The notes beneath the pieces were generated by a model that was given only the letters and a program-made list of their open reading frames with translations, was not told where the DNA came from and ran no database searches. Of a stretch of DNA of 64,000 nt, positions 135 through 45,925 are shown piece by piece. Each line of letters starts with the position of its first letter. Positions within the stretch are counted from its first letter, which is position 1. Both the position numbers and the translations under genes were made by a program. Source of the DNA: Eledone cirrhosa (lineage: Eukaryota); assembly GCA_964016885.1 (NCBI GenBank), contig OZ024740.1, forward strand, positions 398,598,001 to 398,662,000, in the 5' to 3' direction.

Positions 135-427
135 TGTCCCCGAAAAATGTATACACACTTTGATTGTACAGGCAATATATATATTAGAATGGTGTATACA
201 TTTTTAGGGACCCCGGTATATACATATATATATGGTGTCCCCGAAAAATGTATACACACTTTGATTATCTGTACAGGCAATATATATATTAGAATGGTGT
301 ATACATTTTTAGGGACCCCGGTATATATATATATATATGGTGTCCCCGAAAAATGTATACACACTTTGATTACCTGTACAGGCAATATATATATATTAGA
401 ATGGTGTATACATTTGGAGGGACCCCA

Positions 428-467
<40 letters not shown>

Positions 468-1184
468 TGTCCCCGAAAAATGTATACACACTTTGATTAC
501 CTGTACAGGCAATATATATATTAGAATGGTGTATACATTTTTAGGGACACCGGTATATATATATATATGGTGTCCCCGAAAAATGTATACACACTTGGAT
601 TACCTGTACAGGCAATATATATATATTAGAATGGTGTATACATTTTTAGGGACCCGGTATATATATATATATATATATATATATGGTGTCCCCAAAAATG
701 TATACACACTTTGATTACCTGTACAAGCAATATATATATTTAAATGGTGTATACATTTTTAGGTACCCCGATATATCTATATATGGCGTCCCCTAAAAAT
801 GTATACACACTTTGATTACCTGTACAGACAATATATATATTAGAATGGTGTATACATTTTTAGGGACCCCGGTATATATATATATCTATATGATGTCCCC
901 GAAAAATGTATACACACTTTGATTACCTGTACGGGCAATATATATATTAGAATGGTGTATACATTTTTAAAGATCCCGGTATATATATATATATATATGG
1001 TGTCCCCGAAAAATGTATACACACTTTGATTATCTGTACAGACAATATATATATTAGAATGGTGTATACATTTTTAGGGACACCGGTATATATATATATA
1101 GTGTCCCCGAAAAATGTATACACACTTTGATTACCTGTACAGGCAATATATATATTAGAATGGTCTATACATTTTTAGGGACCC

Positions 1185-1241
<57 letters not shown>

Positions 1242-1647
1242 TGTCCCCAAAAAATGTATACACACTTTGATTACCTGTACAGGCAATATATATATTAGAA
1301 TGGTGTATACATTTTTAGGGAGCCCGGTATATATATATATATATATGGTATCCCCGAAAAATGTATACACACTTTGATTACCTGTACAAACAATATATAT
1401 ATTAGAATGGTGTATACATTTTTAGGGACCCCGGTATATACATATATATATGGTGTCCCCGAAAAATGTATACACACTTTGATTATCTGTACAGGCAATA
1501 TATATATTAGAATGGTGTATACATTTTTAGGGACCCCGGTATATATATATATATATATGGTGTCCCCGAAAAATGCATACACACTTTGATTACCTGTACA
1601 GGCAATATATATATATTAGAATGGTGTATACATTTGGAGGGACCCCA

Positions 1648-1713
<66 letters not shown>

Positions 1714-2542
1714 TGTCCCCGAAAAATGTATACACACTTTGATTACCTGTATAGGCAATATATATATTAGAATGGTGTATACATTTTTAGGGACACCGGT
1801 ATATATATATATATGGTGTCCCCGAAAAATGTATGCACACTTGGATTACCTGTACAGGCAATATATATATATTAGAATGGTGTATACATTTTTAGGGAGC
1901 CGGTATATATATATATATATATATATATGGTGTCCCCAAAAATGTATACACACTTTGATTACCTGTACAAGCAATATATATATTTAAATGGTGTATACAT
2001 TTTTAGGTACCCCGGTATATCTATATATGGCGTCCCCTAAAAATGTATACACACTTTGATTACCTGTACAGACAATATATATATTAGAATGGTGTATACA
2101 TTTTTAGGGACCCCGGTATATATATATATATCTATATGGTGTCCCCGAAAAATGTATACACACTTTGATTACCTGTACGGGCAATATATATATTAGAATG
2201 GTGTATACATTTTTAAAGATCCCGGTATATATATATATATATATGGTGTCCCCGAAAAATGTATACACACTTTGATTATCTGTACAGACAATATATATAT
2301 TAGAATGGTGTATACATTTTTAGGGACACCGGTATATATATATATAGTGTCCCCGAAAAATGTATACACACTTTGATTATCTGTACAGGCAATATATATA
2401 TTAGAATGGTGTATACATTTTTAGGGACCCCCGGTATATATATATATATATATGGTGTCCCCGAAAAATGTATACACACTTTGATTACCTGTACAGGCAA
2501 TATATATATATTAGAATGGTGTATACATTTGGAGGGACCCCA

Positions 2543-2594
<52 letters not shown>

Positions 2595-4443
2595 TGTCCC
2601 CGAAAAATGTATACACACTTTGATTACCTGTACAGGCAATATATATATTAGAATGGTGTATACATTTTTAGGGACACCGGTATATATATATATATGGTGT
2701 CCCCGAAAAATGTATGCACACTTGGATTACCTGTACAGGCAATATATATATATTAGAATGGTGTATACATTTTTAGGGACCCGGTATATATATATATATA
2801 TATATATATATGGTGTCCCCAAAAATGTATACACACTTTGATTACCTGTACAAGCAATATATATATTTAAATGGTGTATACATTTTTAGGTACCCCGGTA
2901 TATCTATATATGGCGTCCCCTAAAAATGTACACACACTTTGATTACCTGTACAGACAATATATATATTAGAATGGTGTATACATTTTTAGGGACCCCGGT
3001 ATATATATATATCTATATGGTGTCCCCGAAAAATGTATACACACTTTGATTATCTGTACAGACAATATATATATTAGAATGGTGTATACATTTTTAGGGA
3101 CACCGGTATATATATATATAGTGTCCCCGAAAAATGTATACACACTTTGATTACCTGTACAGGCAATATATATATTAGAATGGTGTATACATTTTTAGGG
3201 AGCCCGGTATATATATATATATATATATGGTATCCCCGAAAAATGTATACACACTTTGATTACCTGTACAAGCAATATATATATTTGAATGGTGTATACA
3301 TTTTTAGGTACCCCGGTATATCTATATATGGCGTTCCCGAAAAATGTATACACACTTTGATTACCTGTACAGACAATATAGATATAAGAATGGTGTATAC
3401 ATTTTTAGGGACACTGGTATATATATATATAGATATATATATATATGGTGTCACCGAAAAATGTATACACAATTTGATTACCTGTACAGGCAATATATAT
3501 ATTAGAATGGTGTATACATTTTTAGGTACCCCGGTATATCTATATATGGGGTCCCCGAAAAATGTATACACACTTTGATTACCTGTACAGGCAATATATA
3601 TATTAGAATGGTGTATACATTTTTAGGGACCCCGGTATATATATATATATATATGGTGTCCCCGAAAAATGTATACACACTTTGATTATCTGTACAGGCA
3701 ATATATATATTAGAATGGTGTATACATTTTTAGGGAGCCCGGTATATATATATATATGGTGTCCCCGAAAAATGTATACACACTTTGATTACCTGTACAA
3801 GCAATATATATATTTGAATGGTGTATACATTTTTAGGTACCCCGGTATATCTATATATGGGGTCCCCGAAAAATGTATACACACTTTGATTACCTGTACA
3901 GGCAATATATATATTAGAATGGTGTATACATTTTTAGGGACCCCGGTATATATATATATATATATGGTGTCCCCGAAAAATGTATACACACTTTGATTAT
4001 CTGTACAGGCAATATATATATTAGAATGGTGTATACATTTTTAGGGACCCCGGTATATATATATATATGGTGTCCCCGAAAAATTTATACACACTTTGAT
4101 TACCTGTACAGGCAATATATATATTAGAATGGTGTATACATTTTTAGGGACACTGGTATATATATATATGGTGTCCCCGAAAAATGTATACACACTTTGA
4201 TTACCTGTACAGGCAATATATATATTAGAATGGTCTATGCATTTTTAGGGACCCCGGTATATATATATATGGTGTCCCCGAAAAATGTATACACACTTTG
4301 ATTACCTGTACAGGCAATATATATATTAGAATGGTGAATACATTTTTAGGGACCCCGGTATATATATGGTGTCCCCGAAAAATGTATACACACTTTGATT
4401 ACCTGTACAGGCAATATATATATTAGAATGGTGTATACATTTT
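1..4443. repeat. Tandem satellite, about 41 monomers of an ~88-bp MITE-like core separated by variable (TA)n; runs off the left edge of the window
   Basis: Core GGTGTCCCCGAAAAATGTATACACACTTTGATTACCTGTACAGGCAATATATATATTAGAATGGTGTATACATTTTTAGGGACCCCGG repeats head-to-tail. Each monomer has inverted ends (GTCCCCGAAAAATGTATACAC / GTGTATACATTTTTAGGGAC). ORFs here are repeat artefacts. Confidence 0.97.
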
Positions 4444-4786
4444 CATATAATACTAAAAGTCTGTGATTGCTTGCTTGCTTATCTGTAATGTAATACAGCC
4501 AAAAGGGCGCATAATTGGAAAATACTTTGAAAGGAAGTTGACCCAGAAATGGGAATACAAATGGAACAAAACAAATTTCGCGTAAATCGGACCGCGGGTT
4601 CCCGACATATGGGGTTTTTCCTGGTGCCTTCATAAATAATGTAAACAAAGAGAGAAAAAGATAGAGAGAAAGAGATAGTGGTTGTGAGAGACTAGATTGA
4701 AAGAGAGACAGAAAGAGGGAGAGGACACAGAGAATGAAAATGGAAGAGCTGGTGGTGCTGTTGTGTGTATATATATATATATATAT

Positions 4787-4887
4787 ATAGGAACCAGTAA
4801 GACCCCGACAGCTGAGCTCAAGCCGTTTCGACGGCTAAGCCGTCGAAACGGCTTGAGCTCAGCTGTCGGGGTCTTACTGGTTCCTAT
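4787..4887. repeat. Perfect 50-bp-arm palindrome (1-nt centre) containing the 3' half of a hammerhead ribozyme
   Basis: 4787-4836 is the exact reverse complement of 4838-4887. The right half reads GACGGC-TAA-GCCGTC GAAA CGGCT..AGCTG TC GGGGTC. Confidence 0.9.
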
Positions 4888-4963
4888 TACCCACTCTACT
4901 ACCCCAAGTATTGAGTACTTTGGTGCGTTATGGTCCACCTGGTTCCTTACCACATTTCTTTCG

Positions 4964-5008
<45 letters not shown>

Positions 5009-11953: not shown

Positions 11954-12556
11954 GCTCTCACTCTCTCTCTCTCTCTCGCTCTCACTCTCTCTCTCGCTCT
12001 CTCTCTCTCGCTCTCTCTCTCTCACTCTCTCTCTCTCCCTCTCTATCTATCTATCTATGTATCTGTCTATCTAGAAGGTAGAAGGAGCAACGTGAAATAA
12101 AATGTCCTTGAGCAAGACATTTTATTTCACGTTGCTCCTTCTACCTGGAGTTACGACCGATAGATATTATTAGCAATTGAAAAGACCAATGAAAACATTG
12201 TTTCCTCGATCCGATTTGACGAAAGTCGATCGTTCCTTCTCTTCTCACTCTCTCTCTCTCTCTTTATTTGCTGTCTCTCCATCCTCATTCTCACAACTAC
12301 TTTCTTTTCTCTTCAATTTATCCATTCAAATCTGATGATTCACTCCGTCATATCTCTCAATTTCTCGTTTTTGTACATTCATTGCGTGTGTGTGTGTGCG
12401 TATGTGCATATGTGCATGCGTGTGTATGTATATGTTACTTTTTTCATTCGACACTTTTGTCTCTCCATCTCTATCTCTCTTTTTCTCTCTCCACTCTCTC
12501 CTTTTCTCTCTTCACTCTCTCCTTTTCTCTCTCTCTCTCTCTCCTTCTCTCTCTCA

Positions 12557-17360: not shown

Positions 17361-17643
<283 letters not shown>

Positions 17644-18187
17644 TATAATGTCAGCAGGAAATGCATACAATATAATGTCAGCAGGAAATGCAGTTAGAAA
17701 AGAACTTCATCTCTACTTTTTCAGCCACCTTCTAGCGTGCAGTTTTGTACATTAAGTTTGGATTGCACATGTAACACTAGTTTGTGAAACAGATTGGAGA
17801 ACCGCTCTGTTGGTAAGATACAAGTGAGAAAATAACACAACAAATTAGAGACAGAAAAATTACGTGTCTTTCGACAAAAACAGATGAGTGCATAAAAATA
17901 TTGCAACTAGAAATAAGTTTAACAATTTGAAAGATCAACTTTATTACAATATAAGAAGAAGATTTAAAACTCAATGTGTTTGTACAATCCGCAACTATGA
18001 AGAGCGAATTCATCCAAAGTATAATCCATATGTTAAAATTGTACGAATGTAACTTTCCAGAACATGAATAGTAAATATCAACGAAGCGTATAGGTAGAAT
18101 TATATCATTTTATTAGTTTTACGCATGTTTCATCAACTGCAGAAAATATCAATTGATAGGGATGTGTAAAAATGTTTGTAAGTTATC

Positions 18188-18348
18188 AAATTATAAATGT
18201 TGGATTCTTATAGAATTCCAGTAATAATCAGGAACTGATTATACAGAGCGGTTGCGGTCCAGCAAAAATTGAAAATTAGAATTGGTGCTCTGTATAATCA
18301 GTTCCTGATTATTACTGGAATTCTATAAGAATCCAACATTCATAATTT
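18188..18348. repeat. Long inverted repeat (54-bp perfect arms, 37-nt spacer)
   Basis: 18196-18249 is the exact reverse complement of 18287-18340. It extends 7 more bp after one mismatch. Confidence 0.93.
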
Positions 18349-18439
18349 TTCAACAAACAAAGGGAGTACTAAGCTCTGAGGAATACCAACAGTATGAAAC
18401 AGAGATCTGTCAGCTTATCTCCCTTTGTTTGTTGAAAAA
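18346..18439 (+). ncRNA. Type I hammerhead ribozyme, complete catalytic core
   Basis: Stem I TAAGCT/AGCTTA, extended by TTTTTCAACAAACAAAGGGAG/CTCCCTTTGTTTGTTGAAAAA. CTGAGGA at 18376-82. Stem II ATAC-caaca-GTAT. GAAA at 18396-99. Stem III ACAG-agat-CTGT. GTC cleavage triplet ends at 18411. Confidence 0.88.
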
Positions 18440-19119
18440 AGAAGTAAGTGACATAGTCACTACTTTAAAACAATAGCGTAAGGTCTTCAAAATGCTTTTA
18501 ATTAAGCATACAGTGTATTACCAAATACTATATATACATTCATATATGCATCTCTATAAAATGTTTATTATGTCTAATATTAAAGATAGTTGGTAGTTAT
18601 TCCACAGTTTATTGAAAGTTGTTACTATAATTTCGTGTATATCTATTAAGTCCTTTTAAGAAATACAACTGCAGGAGTCTTCTAGATCAAGGACTACAGT
18701 ATCCTGGATACACACATCTAATGTATTTTTTACGATGGTACGGTTTGAATCTCTTTCAGTTATTTTATGGGGATTTTGCTGTTGTTTTCTAGCATATAGA
18801 GTGACCACGTGGAGACTCTCATTAGCTAGTGTTGTCACCCGTCCTTGCCGCCGTTGTTGCTGATGAGGATGATATGATGATGACGATGACGATGATGATG
18901 ATGATGATGATGATGATGATAGTTGCGAGATATCTGGATATATAGTCAATTCTTGACAGTCTAACTTAAACGATCCATTCCGCAGGAGTTCATTGTTTTT
19001 TGTTTTATTGTTGTTGTTTTCTTTAAAGAACACCACCACCCCCACCACCCCCCAAAAAATATGTGGGCGTAAGTGGGGTCATGTAAATAAATAGTAAATT
19101 AAGTTATCAGATTGAGCAA

Positions 19120-19380: not shown

Positions 19381-19480
19381 CATACATACATACATACATA
19401 CATACATACATACATACATACATACATACATACATACATACATACATACATACATACATACATACGTACATACATACATA
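19381..19480. repeat. (CATA)n microsatellite, ~25 units
   Basis: Directly visible. Confidence 0.97.
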
Positions 19481-20833
19481 AATAAGGAGAGAACCAGAAC
19501 TGAATACCTCAGAAGAGTAAAGAAAATATGGTCATCAGAACTGTCAGCGTACAACAAGTACATTGCCCACAATACTTATGCTGTGCCAATTCTAACGCCA
19601 ACATTTAGCCTGCTGAACTGGTCATTGCAAGAACTAAGTGAGATGGATGTTAGAACTCGCAAACTTCTCAGTGTTACTGGGAACTTTAACATCAATGGTG
19701 ATGTGGATAGGCTATACTTCTCACGCAAGGAAGGTGGCCGGGGTCTAAAATCCATATTAACATCATATGAGACCAGGATAGTAACACTGAAGCAACATCT
19801 TCAACAGAGGAAAAAGGTTGGCAACCATCTTGCCCAGGTTTATGAGCATGAAGAAAAAAATATCACTAGGATAGCCACTGATCTGGAGGAGAGATATGGA
19901 ATAAAGCCTGATATAAATCTCTCACCCAGAGAAATCGGAAGATCCTATTCAATGTTCAAACAAGATGAAAAAATTGACCAATTTACAGAAAAAGTTGTGC
20001 ATGGATACTTGAGGCGTAAAACACAGACCATAGAGGGGATAAACCACTCAAAAAGCCTGGCATGGAGTTCCGACAAGTTTATGACATCACACCTTGAGGG
20101 ATATCTCTATGCAATACAGGAACAAGAACTCCCTACCAAATATCTGCTGCACAAAAGAGGAGAGCCAGCAGCTGACAATAAATGCAGGCTATGTAAAACA
20201 AAGATCGAAGATGTAAGCCACATTGTTGCCAGCTGCGAAAGAATGTCATCTCGCTACTACCTCCCCATGAGACACGATGGGATAGCTAGAACCATCTGGA
20301 ACGCACTTCGGAAAACAAAATTAACAACAAACGAGGAAGAATATATCGAGACAGATGGCACTAAGGAATACTGGTGAAACCTGAAAATAAAAACTGCCAC
20401 CAAATTAAAGCACAACCGACCTGATATTGTTGTTTGGGACCACACATTGAAAACGTGTTCTGTTGTGGAGATCAGCTGCCCACTTGATGTAAACGTTGTC
20501 AGAAAAATACAGGAGAAGGAAGACATCTACGGACCATTGATGAGGAGTTTACAAATCAAGTATCCAAGATACACCTTTAGCTTCTTACCCATCATTATTG
20601 GAGCTACGGGTTATATACCAACCCGCTTGGACCAATGTATAACTGAAGTTGGATTTGTGGACAAAGAGCGCAGCTCCCTAATTCATAGTCTACAAATGGC
20701 TGCGATAGCTGGCACCTTCAAAATTTGCATAACATTCTTGCGATTCAGGGATGACAATTTCTTTTCTTTTACGACTTTGCCACCAGGAAGGTGGTCGGTC
20801 AAAAATATACTCGAAATTAAGAGAAAGAGAGAA
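19481..20833 (+). mobile_element. 5'-truncated R4/Dong-clade non-LTR retrotransposon (RT thumb, CCHC zinc knuckle, RLE), with one in-frame stop
   Basis: NKYIAHNTYAVP..DVDRLYFSRKEGGRGL, CRLC-x7-H-x4-C, RHD, then HNRPDIVVWD..VEISCP in the same frame after TGA at 20375-77. Confidence 0.88.
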
Positions 20834-45159: not shown

Positions 45160-45542
45160 CAAATAAGTTTTCTATTGGTTACAGGTAATTTACGTCTTAG
45201 TAGTTAATTTGTTTGTCGCAAAATATCTAGAACGTAATCCTTTCTCTAAACTGTCATTCTAAAACATTTAATTAATTCTAAAAATTATTTGTTAAAAACC
45301 GAATTAGTTTAGAACCAGATTTGATTCTAAACCAGTTCGTTTTTATTTTAAACAATTTCTCGAAAACTGATTTTTTTTTTTTTAATTCTTAGTTGTTGGA
45401 ACTGTTTTTCTCTCTCCCTTTCGTGAAACGAGACAACTATTTCCTTGGTGTGATTTGGCCACAGAACCCACGCTTACGCCTGTTTTTCCTTACTTGATGT
45501 CCACTACTACCATCGTTATCAATCTCATCATTTCTATAAACT

Positions 45543-45756
45543 TTAAATATTCATTTCTTCGCATTACTTTGTCGTCATGCTTTGTAACTTTGAGTAAATA
45601 TGTACTGAATGTTGATACAAGCATCAAATATATATGAGCGAAAGGTGTTGTCTTCAGTTTTCTTCTGTAAGTTATTTTCAATTTGATGCTTGTATCAACA
45701 TTTCCTTAAAGTTACAAAGCTTGACGACAAAGTAATGCGAAGAAATGAATATTTAA
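45543..45756. repeat. Long two-part inverted repeat (hairpin)
   Basis: 45543-45591 vs 45708-45756 match 48/49, and 45608-45629 vs 45681-45702 match 22/22. Confidence 0.92.
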
Positions 45757-45783
45757 GGTACGGTTGTCCTTCCTGTTCCTATA

Positions 45784-45836
45784 ACCATGCCCGAGCTGAA
45801 GATCCGCTAAAGTGAAACAATTGTTCTCGGTATGGT
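45784..45836 (+). ncRNA. Minimal type I hammerhead ribozyme with weak stem II
   Basis: ACCATG-c-CCGAG CTGAAGA tccgctaaagt GAAA CAATTG TT CTCGG-TATGGT. Stem III is the palindrome ACAATTGT. Confidence 0.55.
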
Positions 45837-45858
45837 GAACTAACTGTTGTGTAACCAC

Positions 45859-45925
<67 letters not shown>

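Follow-up and report, generated by a model that had tools for sequence, protein, structure and literature searches.

A 64,000-nucleotide (nt) stretch of the Eledone cirrhosa genome (GenBank assembly GCA_964016885.1, contig OZ024740.1, positions 398,598,001 to 398,662,000 of the forward strand; hereafter the window, numbered from its first base) contains two places at which a long hairpin lies upstream of a hammerhead-like motif, and raises the question of what brings the two together. The original prediction, made from the letters of the window, had proposed a recurring cassette, representing a class of small, non-coding, ribozyme-terminated mobile RNAs of Penelope-dependent or retrozyme-like type. 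Our analysis leads us, with reasonable confidence, to a different answer: the cassettes are copies of two unrelated, high-copy families of Penelope-type retroelements (families 1 and 2), and the hairpins most likely remained as scars when the elements integrated, instead of being conserved within a mobile RNA. The recurrence of the hairpins is real and marks a mode of integration, whether or not the retained piece includes a ribozyme. The proposed mobile character stood for both ribozyme-bearing pieces and the single shared class did not; beyond TA-rich stretches the cassettes had no sequence in common, as had been noted before, which in itself argues against one class.

The 54-base-pair (bp) perfect stem described at cassette 1 was confirmed (18196-18249 pairing with 18287-18340), and it does adjoin a hammerhead with a type-I core, helix I of which begins 5 bases 3' of the stem. 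The extended arms of this hairpin 1 are 75 nt long (18175-18249/18287-18361, 92% complementary) and enclose a loop of 37 nt. Alignment to other family-1 copies gave a true extent of approximately 18188-18557, homology with those copies ending at 18547-18558, and thus placed the right edge at ~ 18557 and not at 18439. The predicted RNA fold of 18188-18557 had a z-score of -17.3. Read as the reverse complement, arm 1 and the loop were found to match the 37-nt stretch and arm 2 of the same unit, which make up its first ~ 100 nt; hairpin 1 is therefore an inverted partial self-copy and not a separate module.

Copies of family 1 were retrieved from the 3.0-Gb genome with a 276-nt query containing the hairpin (1892 first-look candidates) and, because that query was biased by the hairpin it held, in a second search with the hammerhead and tail only (1744 candidates); for all families, the copies sampled were the 40 best-scoring of 800-2500 candidates. 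Family 1 proved to be a repeat with a monomer period of ~ 318 nt, composed of a 37-nt stretch, a 59-nt arm, a 94-nt hammerhead and a 118-nt tail, the 37-nt stretch being bounded by a natural 6-bp inverted repeat (CAGAGC...GCTCTG). Its GC content was 32.6%, and no open reading frame (ORF) of at least 30 amino acids (aa) was found inside a tandem dimer, one ORF of 31 aa lying at the edge and running out of the dimer. Copies were present as 1- to 2.x-mers with variable 5' starts and a common 3' end, which adjoined (TA)n or (TG)n at several loci. Two complete ribozymes in direct orientation were seen in 3/29 copies (L063, L077 and L080), most others being 1- to 1.5-mers or head-to-head arrangements.

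With the hairpin-free query, an inverted family-1 segment lay no more than 60 nt upstream of the focal copy at 17 of the 29 other best loci, and a script count returned no inverted partner at 12, one of which (L072) was read as complex. The arm/arm junction of the window was present in 3 of these 29 copies and lacking in 26; partner junctions varied, ending at the hammerhead start, at the tail start or inside the tail. The 13 palindromic loci from the first search differed in spacer length, filler and presence of a loop, and approximately 9 of the 13 had (TA)n or a TA-rich microsatellite at both outer ends when judged by eye. From this spread of spacers, fillers and junctions we infer that the inverted partners arose repeatedly and not from a single hairpinned founder, a founder effect being possible for some of them.

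These counts bear directly on the original proposal, according to which the long hairpin and its terminal hammerhead together would be the transposing unit, giving rod-like or circular RNA and substrates for Dicer or ADAR. Co-occurrence of hairpin and ribozyme at 19 of ~ 40 scored family-1 places (a count biased by the hairpin in the query) and a candidate 9-bp target-site duplication, AAAATGTTT, bracketing the whole of cassette 1, would both suit such a unit, the duplication giving weak support in that 100 of 2000 shuffled flank pairs (5%) also shared a 9-mer. The outcome of the hairpin-free search and the variation in junction position, spacer and partner length point the other way.

A 173-nt repeat (17473-17645) was rejected as part of the element, since it recurs in many family-1 loci at inconsistent distance and in either orientation; it is probably an unrelated abundant repeat. 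The word ACATTCATA (18335-18343 and 18541-18549), an internal look-alike of the 3' end that might have set the outer limit of the left arm, gave a hint only, being loose for family 1 and not clean elsewhere. A 516-nt stretch further downstream (19477-19992), 94% identical to sequence in locus L013, is another repeat.

The hammerhead of family 1 contains CUGAGGA (18376-18382), GAAA (18396-18399) and GUC (18409-18411) in the order expected of this ribozyme. A 21-bp perfect inverted repeat (18346-18366/18419-18439) encloses a 52-nt core stretch and, with 6 inner pairs (18370-18375/18412-18417), forms a helix I of 27 bp altogether; helix II (18383-18395) has 4 bp and a 5-nt loop, and is followed by GAA (18396-18398) and a helix III of 4 bp (18399-18410). 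Cleavage is predicted after C18411. This was the sole match in the window to a purpose-written strict type-I descriptor, which found 0.01 matches per window in 100 Markov shuffles. Across 60 distinct aligned copies, 93.3% of helix cells were paired and 13 cells had changed on both sides, compared with 2.6 +/- 1.5 in shuffled alignments (0/500 reaching 13). The pair at the base of helix II (10.1/11.1) was A-U in 50/60 copies and G-C in 7/60 with no one-sided intermediates, and one helix I pair was A-U in 52 copies and G-C in 4. At three helix I pairs, A-to-G changes were frequent (18, 10 and 32 of 60 copies), and it is on the + strand only that they keep G-U pairs, a pattern that would fit an RNA helix under selection or the editing of a double-stranded RNA intermediate; as possible editing footprints, these changes could also speak for the mobile-RNA class.

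In the fold of the 318-nt RNA between two predicted cleavage sites, helix I joined the two ends (z = -5.4). Multimeric transcripts of tandem copies would be cut by the hammerhead into 318-nt monomers, the ends of which would pair in this way. The window copy could be cut at most once because it holds a single hammerhead, and would release neither a unit-length RNA nor a circle by itself, a further point against the hairpin cassette as an independent circular RNA. Cassette 1 is most probably an animal retrozyme of the non-long-terminal-repeat (non-LTR) type, and the family was probably mobilised in trans by a Penelope-like element.

At the second cassette, the predicted succession of hairpin, hammerhead-like motif and (TA)n was found, the motif being weak and failing the descriptor. 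Hairpin 2 consists of arms that are 93% complementary (45540-45599/45700-45759), with a longest perfect stem of 35 bp (45543-45577/45722-45756) and an inner perfect pair of 22 bp. Only 45758-45860 is repeated in the genome (1320 candidates). Hairpin 2 was absent from all 42 other family-2 matches and matched nothing but itself genome-wide, and no target duplication was found round cassette 2. The junction of CCACTTC with (TA)n recurred in about half of 19 other family-2 copies.

The family-2 motif has its core elements in the right order (45796-45825): helix I at 45784-45795/45826-45836, CUGAAGA at 45796-45802, GAAA at 45814-45817 and a palindromic CAAUUG as helix III (45818-45823). In intact form, helix I comprises 5 + 5 bp with an internal loop, helix II two pairs above a U-U mismatch, and helix III two pairs capped by palindromic AAUU. 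An intact copy (L031) passed a loose descriptor only, which gives 0.27 chance matches per window. The window motif failed even this, with helix II reduced to 1 pair and a 5-nt deletion in helix I; the three helices of a type-I hammerhead, supported by covariation, are not seen in it.

Copies of family 2 share a common 3' end, differ at their 5' ends and reach up to 1.5 kb upstream into coding sequence. An ORF fragment at locus L055 contained FDVSMGSFD, YHDD, a CxCX5C stretch and VIY...YVG...R...H; in the genome's own copy P0001, the linker and the GIY...YVG stretch can be seen. Relatives of this fragment are proteins of ~ 700 aa. In an alignment of 11 sequences, FDVxMGSFD, YxDD and then VIY...YxG...R...H were in register, together with RW(K/R), DKT, CxCX5C, no Cys between GIY and YIG, and CxxC + CxH near the C-terminus, and neighbouring Atlas clusters were labelled RVT_1, GIY-YIG, HTH_animal and DUF8422. 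Judged by these motifs and labels, family 2 is very probably a Hydra-clade Penelope-like element of the autonomous kind, of which the window holds the last 104 nt and (TA)n. The search for an autonomous Penelope with the same 3' end, suggested along with the original prediction, thus led to family 2 itself, with reverse transcriptase and GIY-YIG motifs; none was found in the family-1 loci or in the window. An RVT_1 domain at L055:1623-2897 and a nearby PHD were rejected as family-2 domains, lying upstream of the (TA)n at which the family-2 copy starts; the ORFs with PHD finger and RVT_1 in L055:967-2897 belong to a different retroelement.

Two alternative 3' ends of family 2 were observed ~ 70 nt apart; each is AC-rich and runs into (TA)n, and L023 has a possible third ~ 110 nt further on. 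Head-to-head partners were present in 8/19 copies by blastn and in two more by tblastn (L022 and L028), and the same arrangement was seen at L056 and L058. Separately, a long near-perfect palindrome directly after (TA)n was noted in L025, ~ 115-230 nt 3' of the family-2 end; a fragment of it follows (TA)n beside a family-1 copy in L012, and it may be a palindromic repeat sited at (TA)n.

Table 1 Features of the two cassettes in the window
Feature	Position	Strand	Remark
Candidate target-site duplication, left copy (AAAATGTTT)	18169..18177	+	9-mer repeated at 18558-18566
Arm 1, reverse complement of arm 2 (a segment of the same element, inverted)	18188..18249	+	Matches arm 2 of other copies on the opposite strand only
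Loop, equivalent to the 37 nt before arm 2 of an ordinary monomer, here reversed	18250..18286	+	In ordinary copies in opposite orientation, between CAGAGC and GCTCTG
Arm 2, from the 5' part of family-1 monomers, as in ordinary copies	18287..18345	+	97-100% identity to many copies
Type-I hammerhead of cassette 1	18346..18439	+	Descriptor, inverted repeat and 60-copy pairing
Tail of the family-1 monomer, to the common 3' end of the family	18440..18557	+	Homology; end adjoins (TA)n or (TG)n at other loci
Candidate target-site duplication, right copy	18558..18566	+	Directly after the family-1 element end
Hairpin 2, ~ 220-nt imperfect palindrome outside the family-2 repeat	45540..45759	.	Single-copy in genome
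104-nt 5'-truncated 3' end of Hydra-clade Penelope-like element, with degenerate hammerhead-like motif	45758..45861	+	Alignment of family-2 copies
(TA)n tract at the family-2 3' end (target microsatellite)	45862..45919	+	Junction of CCACTTC with (TA)n

Scanning the 64-kb window for non-simple perfect hairpins of at least 25 bp with loops up to 400 nt returned four, including those of both cassettes, and each of the four bordered a microsatellite-flanked repeat fragment on its upstream side. The third (4787-4836/4838-4887) is a 50-bp perfect hairpin with a 1-nt loop, formed by an inverted copy of the start of a ~ 125-nt element; the resulting ~ 177-nt element (4787-4962, in region 4767-4990) has (TA)n on both sides and defines family 3 (793 first-look candidates). 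A copy of this element without the left arm was noted beside L032. The fourth, of 31 bp (12076-12146), again arose from an inverted copy of the start of the repeat itself, here a (CT)n-flanked, 5'-truncated copy (12076-12236) of a very abundant short repeat, family 4 (2473 candidates). Its left arm was present in 3/40 scored copies, and its junction falls in a natural 5-bp mini-hairpin, ATGTC...GACAT. In its 3' part, this repeat resembles what follows the optional family-2 tail in L023. An origin from transfer RNA (tRNA) is unsupported for family 4: full copies contain the box-B-like GTTCGATTCC, but ARAGORN found no tRNA at three loci. The list of inverted repeats in the window is dominated by a partly self-complementary tandem array with a ~ 105-110-nt unit at ~ 200-4300.

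The scan also bears on chance adjacency, the alternative which the original prediction itself had offered, with miniature inverted-repeat transposable elements (MITEs) of unrelated families landing beside ribozyme-bearing repeats. Palindromic repeats next to (TA)n do exist in this genome (e.g. in L025) and the window is repeat-rich; even so, we give next to no credence to this explanation, as the arms of hairpin 1 derive from the retroelement itself, hairpin 2 occurs once and hence represents no transposon family, and there are only four such hairpins in 64 kb, each adjoining the 5' edge of a repeat (junction hairpins 4/4). By post hoc arithmetic, the chance of any of the three other hairpins ending within 30 nt of a given junction was ~ 0.003.

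Family 3 also speaks for the mobile-RNA class, its hairpin being found in 40/40 scored copies, some of them 99% identical, and the hairpins are extremely stable as RNA by predicted fold. Set against this, hairpin 2 occurs only once in the genome, and no hammerhead match was found at the hairpinned fragments at 4787 and 12076 when the window was scanned with the descriptors. Hammerhead copies without the hairpin, named beforehand as evidence against the original prediction, were found in both families, and the claim of a ribozyme-terminated RNA with the long hairpin as a defined module was not supported, given the 0/42 and 26/29 counts above. Genome searches with each cassette, as had been proposed, did return a fixed 3' end for family 1, with hairpin and ribozyme joined at varying junctions. 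The copy survey has already largely refuted the mobile-RNA view, and we regard it as unlikely.

Artefacts of assembly or rearrangement after insertion offer a highly improbable source of the palindromes. Complex tandem and inverted structures of Penelope-like elements are known to trouble assemblies, according to the sections on these structures in PMC8557442, and those observed here are short (150-700 nt), occur at dozens of loci on many contigs, show arm divergence from 0 to ~ 20%, and have both outer ends in (TA)n or flanked by matching short repeats, all of which argues against an artefact.

Integration by a Penelope-like element would account for the hairpins as follows. The nuclease of the element would cut an AT-rich target, usually (TA)n, and synthesis of complementary DNA (cDNA) would begin from the 3' end of the element, using one strand and in many cases the second as well; alternatively, the first cDNA would snap back on itself, and either route would fit the present data. 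The 3' ends of the cDNAs would meet and prime each other at a short inverted repeat in the template (CAGAGC/GCTCTG in family 1) or at the foot of a stable helix. The outcome would be two head-to-head copies with their 3' ends, ribozymes and (TA)n facing outward.

Hairpin 2 holds no element sequence, and the element-inversion account is not directly applicable to it. Either the upstream flank would have been copied by fold-back at this junction, or the palindrome would already have existed, two readings that are about equally likely in our view. In the second case the 220-nt palindrome would predate the insertion, an AT-preferring nuclease having cut beside structured AT-rich DNA, or the adjacency would have no cause at all; we consider this possible, for cassette 2 only, without favouring it. 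Besides the lack of element sequence, a published preference for AT-rich targets (PMC11167929) suits an earlier palindrome, as does the divergence of its arms (~ 7%, compared with ~ 1% substitutions and one 5-nt deletion in the element fragment), which may indicate greater age, but that age comparison sets 4 events against 1 or 2. Against an earlier palindrome, the usual (TA)n target lies on the 3' side only, with a short ATATAT (45630-45635) within the palindrome, and the other three hairpins of the window were built from element sequence, i.e. at or after insertion.

Several observations, in addition to the content of hairpin 2 and the 19 hairpin-bearing family-1 loci, weigh against integration scars of Penelope-type elements as the full explanation. 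None of the copy samples was random. Hairpin-bearing forms are themselves multi-copy and some may amplify as units, as the 40/40 count of family 3 illustrates, loop-size variants included and with a query that held the hairpin. No sequence similarity was found between family 1 and the 3' region of family 2, and no Penelope ORF in the family-1 loci examined or in the window. The G-C copies at the base of helix II derive from three loci, and this compensatory change may be a single inherited event (one or two events). Rfam returned no hammerhead for the whole window at gathering score, nor at E <= 10 for small stretches round either motif; an older family-1 copy of the G-C type had Hammerhead_1 as its best family (61 nt, E = 0.44, core aligned as assigned) with 14.0 bits, below the RF00163 gathering score of 34. 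Finally, searches of Pfam, NCBIfam and PDB (sequence and profile) with the ORF fragments and their homologues gave no hit to a reverse transcriptase or GIY-YIG domain, which leaves alignment motifs, Atlas cluster labels and architecture as the basis of the Penelope assignment. Plant and animal microRNA models of Rfam matched both bare hairpins below threshold (E <= 10), and these generic stem matches were rejected as spurious.

A bolder version of integration by Penelope-like elements is offered tentatively, and we would not bet on it: the junction hairpins may be in vivo footprints of priming on both strands, joined at tiny template hairpins, and the process may keep spawning long perfect inverted repeats, some of which (e.g. 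4787-4962) amplify as hairpin-bearing non-autonomous elements and are potential sources of double-stranded RNA.

Family 2 closely resembles the Hydra clade as characterised in the clade descriptions of PMC8557442, which list RWK, DKT in place of DKG, a CxCX5C linker, no CCHH between GIY and YIG, and CxxC + CxH, in short elements with canonical hammerheads, (TA)n insertion and a single ORF in which reverse transcriptase is followed by a C-terminal GIY-YIG nuclease. All of these motif traits were visible in the family-2 alignment, and a single ORF of ~ 700 aa ending in GIY-YIG is predicted for the family. Family 2 likewise lies at (TA)n, its terminal repeat region includes a hammerhead motif, and its copies are heavily truncated at the 5' end, with inverted partners there and an extension at the 3' end that is optional. 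It differs in the U-U at the base of helix II and in the length of that extension, ~ 70 nt (with the possible third end in L023) compared with 30-40 bp for the published Penelope-like 'tail' (PMC11167929). The alternative 3' ends of family 2 resemble this 'tail' and two internal start sites of reverse transcription used by a purified Penelope-like protein, which cleaves and extends both DNA strands in vitro (PMC11167929). An inverted, 5'-truncated partner is a hallmark of Penelope-like insertions in the insertion accounts of PMC8557442, and head-to-head pairs with 3' ends outward occur in both family 2 and family 1. Here, unlike in the published cases described there, the pairs are of miniature scale and involve non-autonomous elements, natural inverted repeats of 5-6 bp often mark the junction, and at cassette 2 the inverted material is not element sequence.

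Animal retrozymes are described in the repeat descriptions of PMC7229834 as AT-rich, non-coding tandem repeats of ~ 300 bp (150-450 bp) with type-I hammerheads, in arrays from dimers to large multimers and expressed as linear and circular monomer RNA, and have been proposed, in the part of 10.64898/2026.07.22.740005 that deals with their origin, to be non-autonomous derivatives of Penelope-like elements. The ~ 318-nt AT-rich non-coding monomer of family 1, its type-I hammerhead with 6-bp inner helix I and 4-bp helix II, its occasional direct dimers and the presence of a Penelope-like element in the same genome agree with this description. Family 1 departs from it in that its copies are mostly dispersed 1- to 1.5-mers, with two full direct ribozymes in the minority noted above, that helix I reaches 27 bp and helix III forms 4 stable pairs, and that over half of the copies have a head-to-head partner. 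In a narrow search, the word 'inverted' occurred 0 times in the main text of PMC7229834 and only in the reference list of 10.64898/2026.07.22.740005, and a high frequency of head-to-head retrozyme copies is a point we did not find in the text of either source covered by that search. An active axolotl retrozyme hammerhead, HHR_Amex2, has a U-U mismatch at the foot of helix II, and its helix III consists of two pairs and a tetraloop, as presented in the hammerhead data of PMC7229834. The family-2 motif, known here from its sequence, has the same U-U and two-pair helix III; the window copy, unlike HHR_Amex2, is further reduced by one pair in helix II and 5 nt in helix I.

In L1 twin priming, an inverted 5' segment is made during target-primed reverse transcription by priming from the second strand. 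The present case differs in enzyme family, both strands reportedly being cut and extended in vitro by the element's own protein (PMC11167929), and in that inverted partners are far more frequent in the Penelope-like and family-1 case.

The finding is largely ordinary and its significance modest. It provides a clean example of a Hydra-clade Penelope-like element and a retrozyme-like non-autonomous repeat in one large animal genome, and extends the habit of leaving an inverted 5' copy to a small ribozyme-bearing repeat, which gives indirect support to the proposal that animal retrozymes ride on Penelope-like machinery. Junctions at short natural inverted repeats, with (TA)n outside, are genomic data that can be compared with the in vitro report of activity on both strands. 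For annotation, it means that long perfect hairpins beside (TA)n should not be taken for microRNA or hairpin-RNA genes until this origin has been checked.

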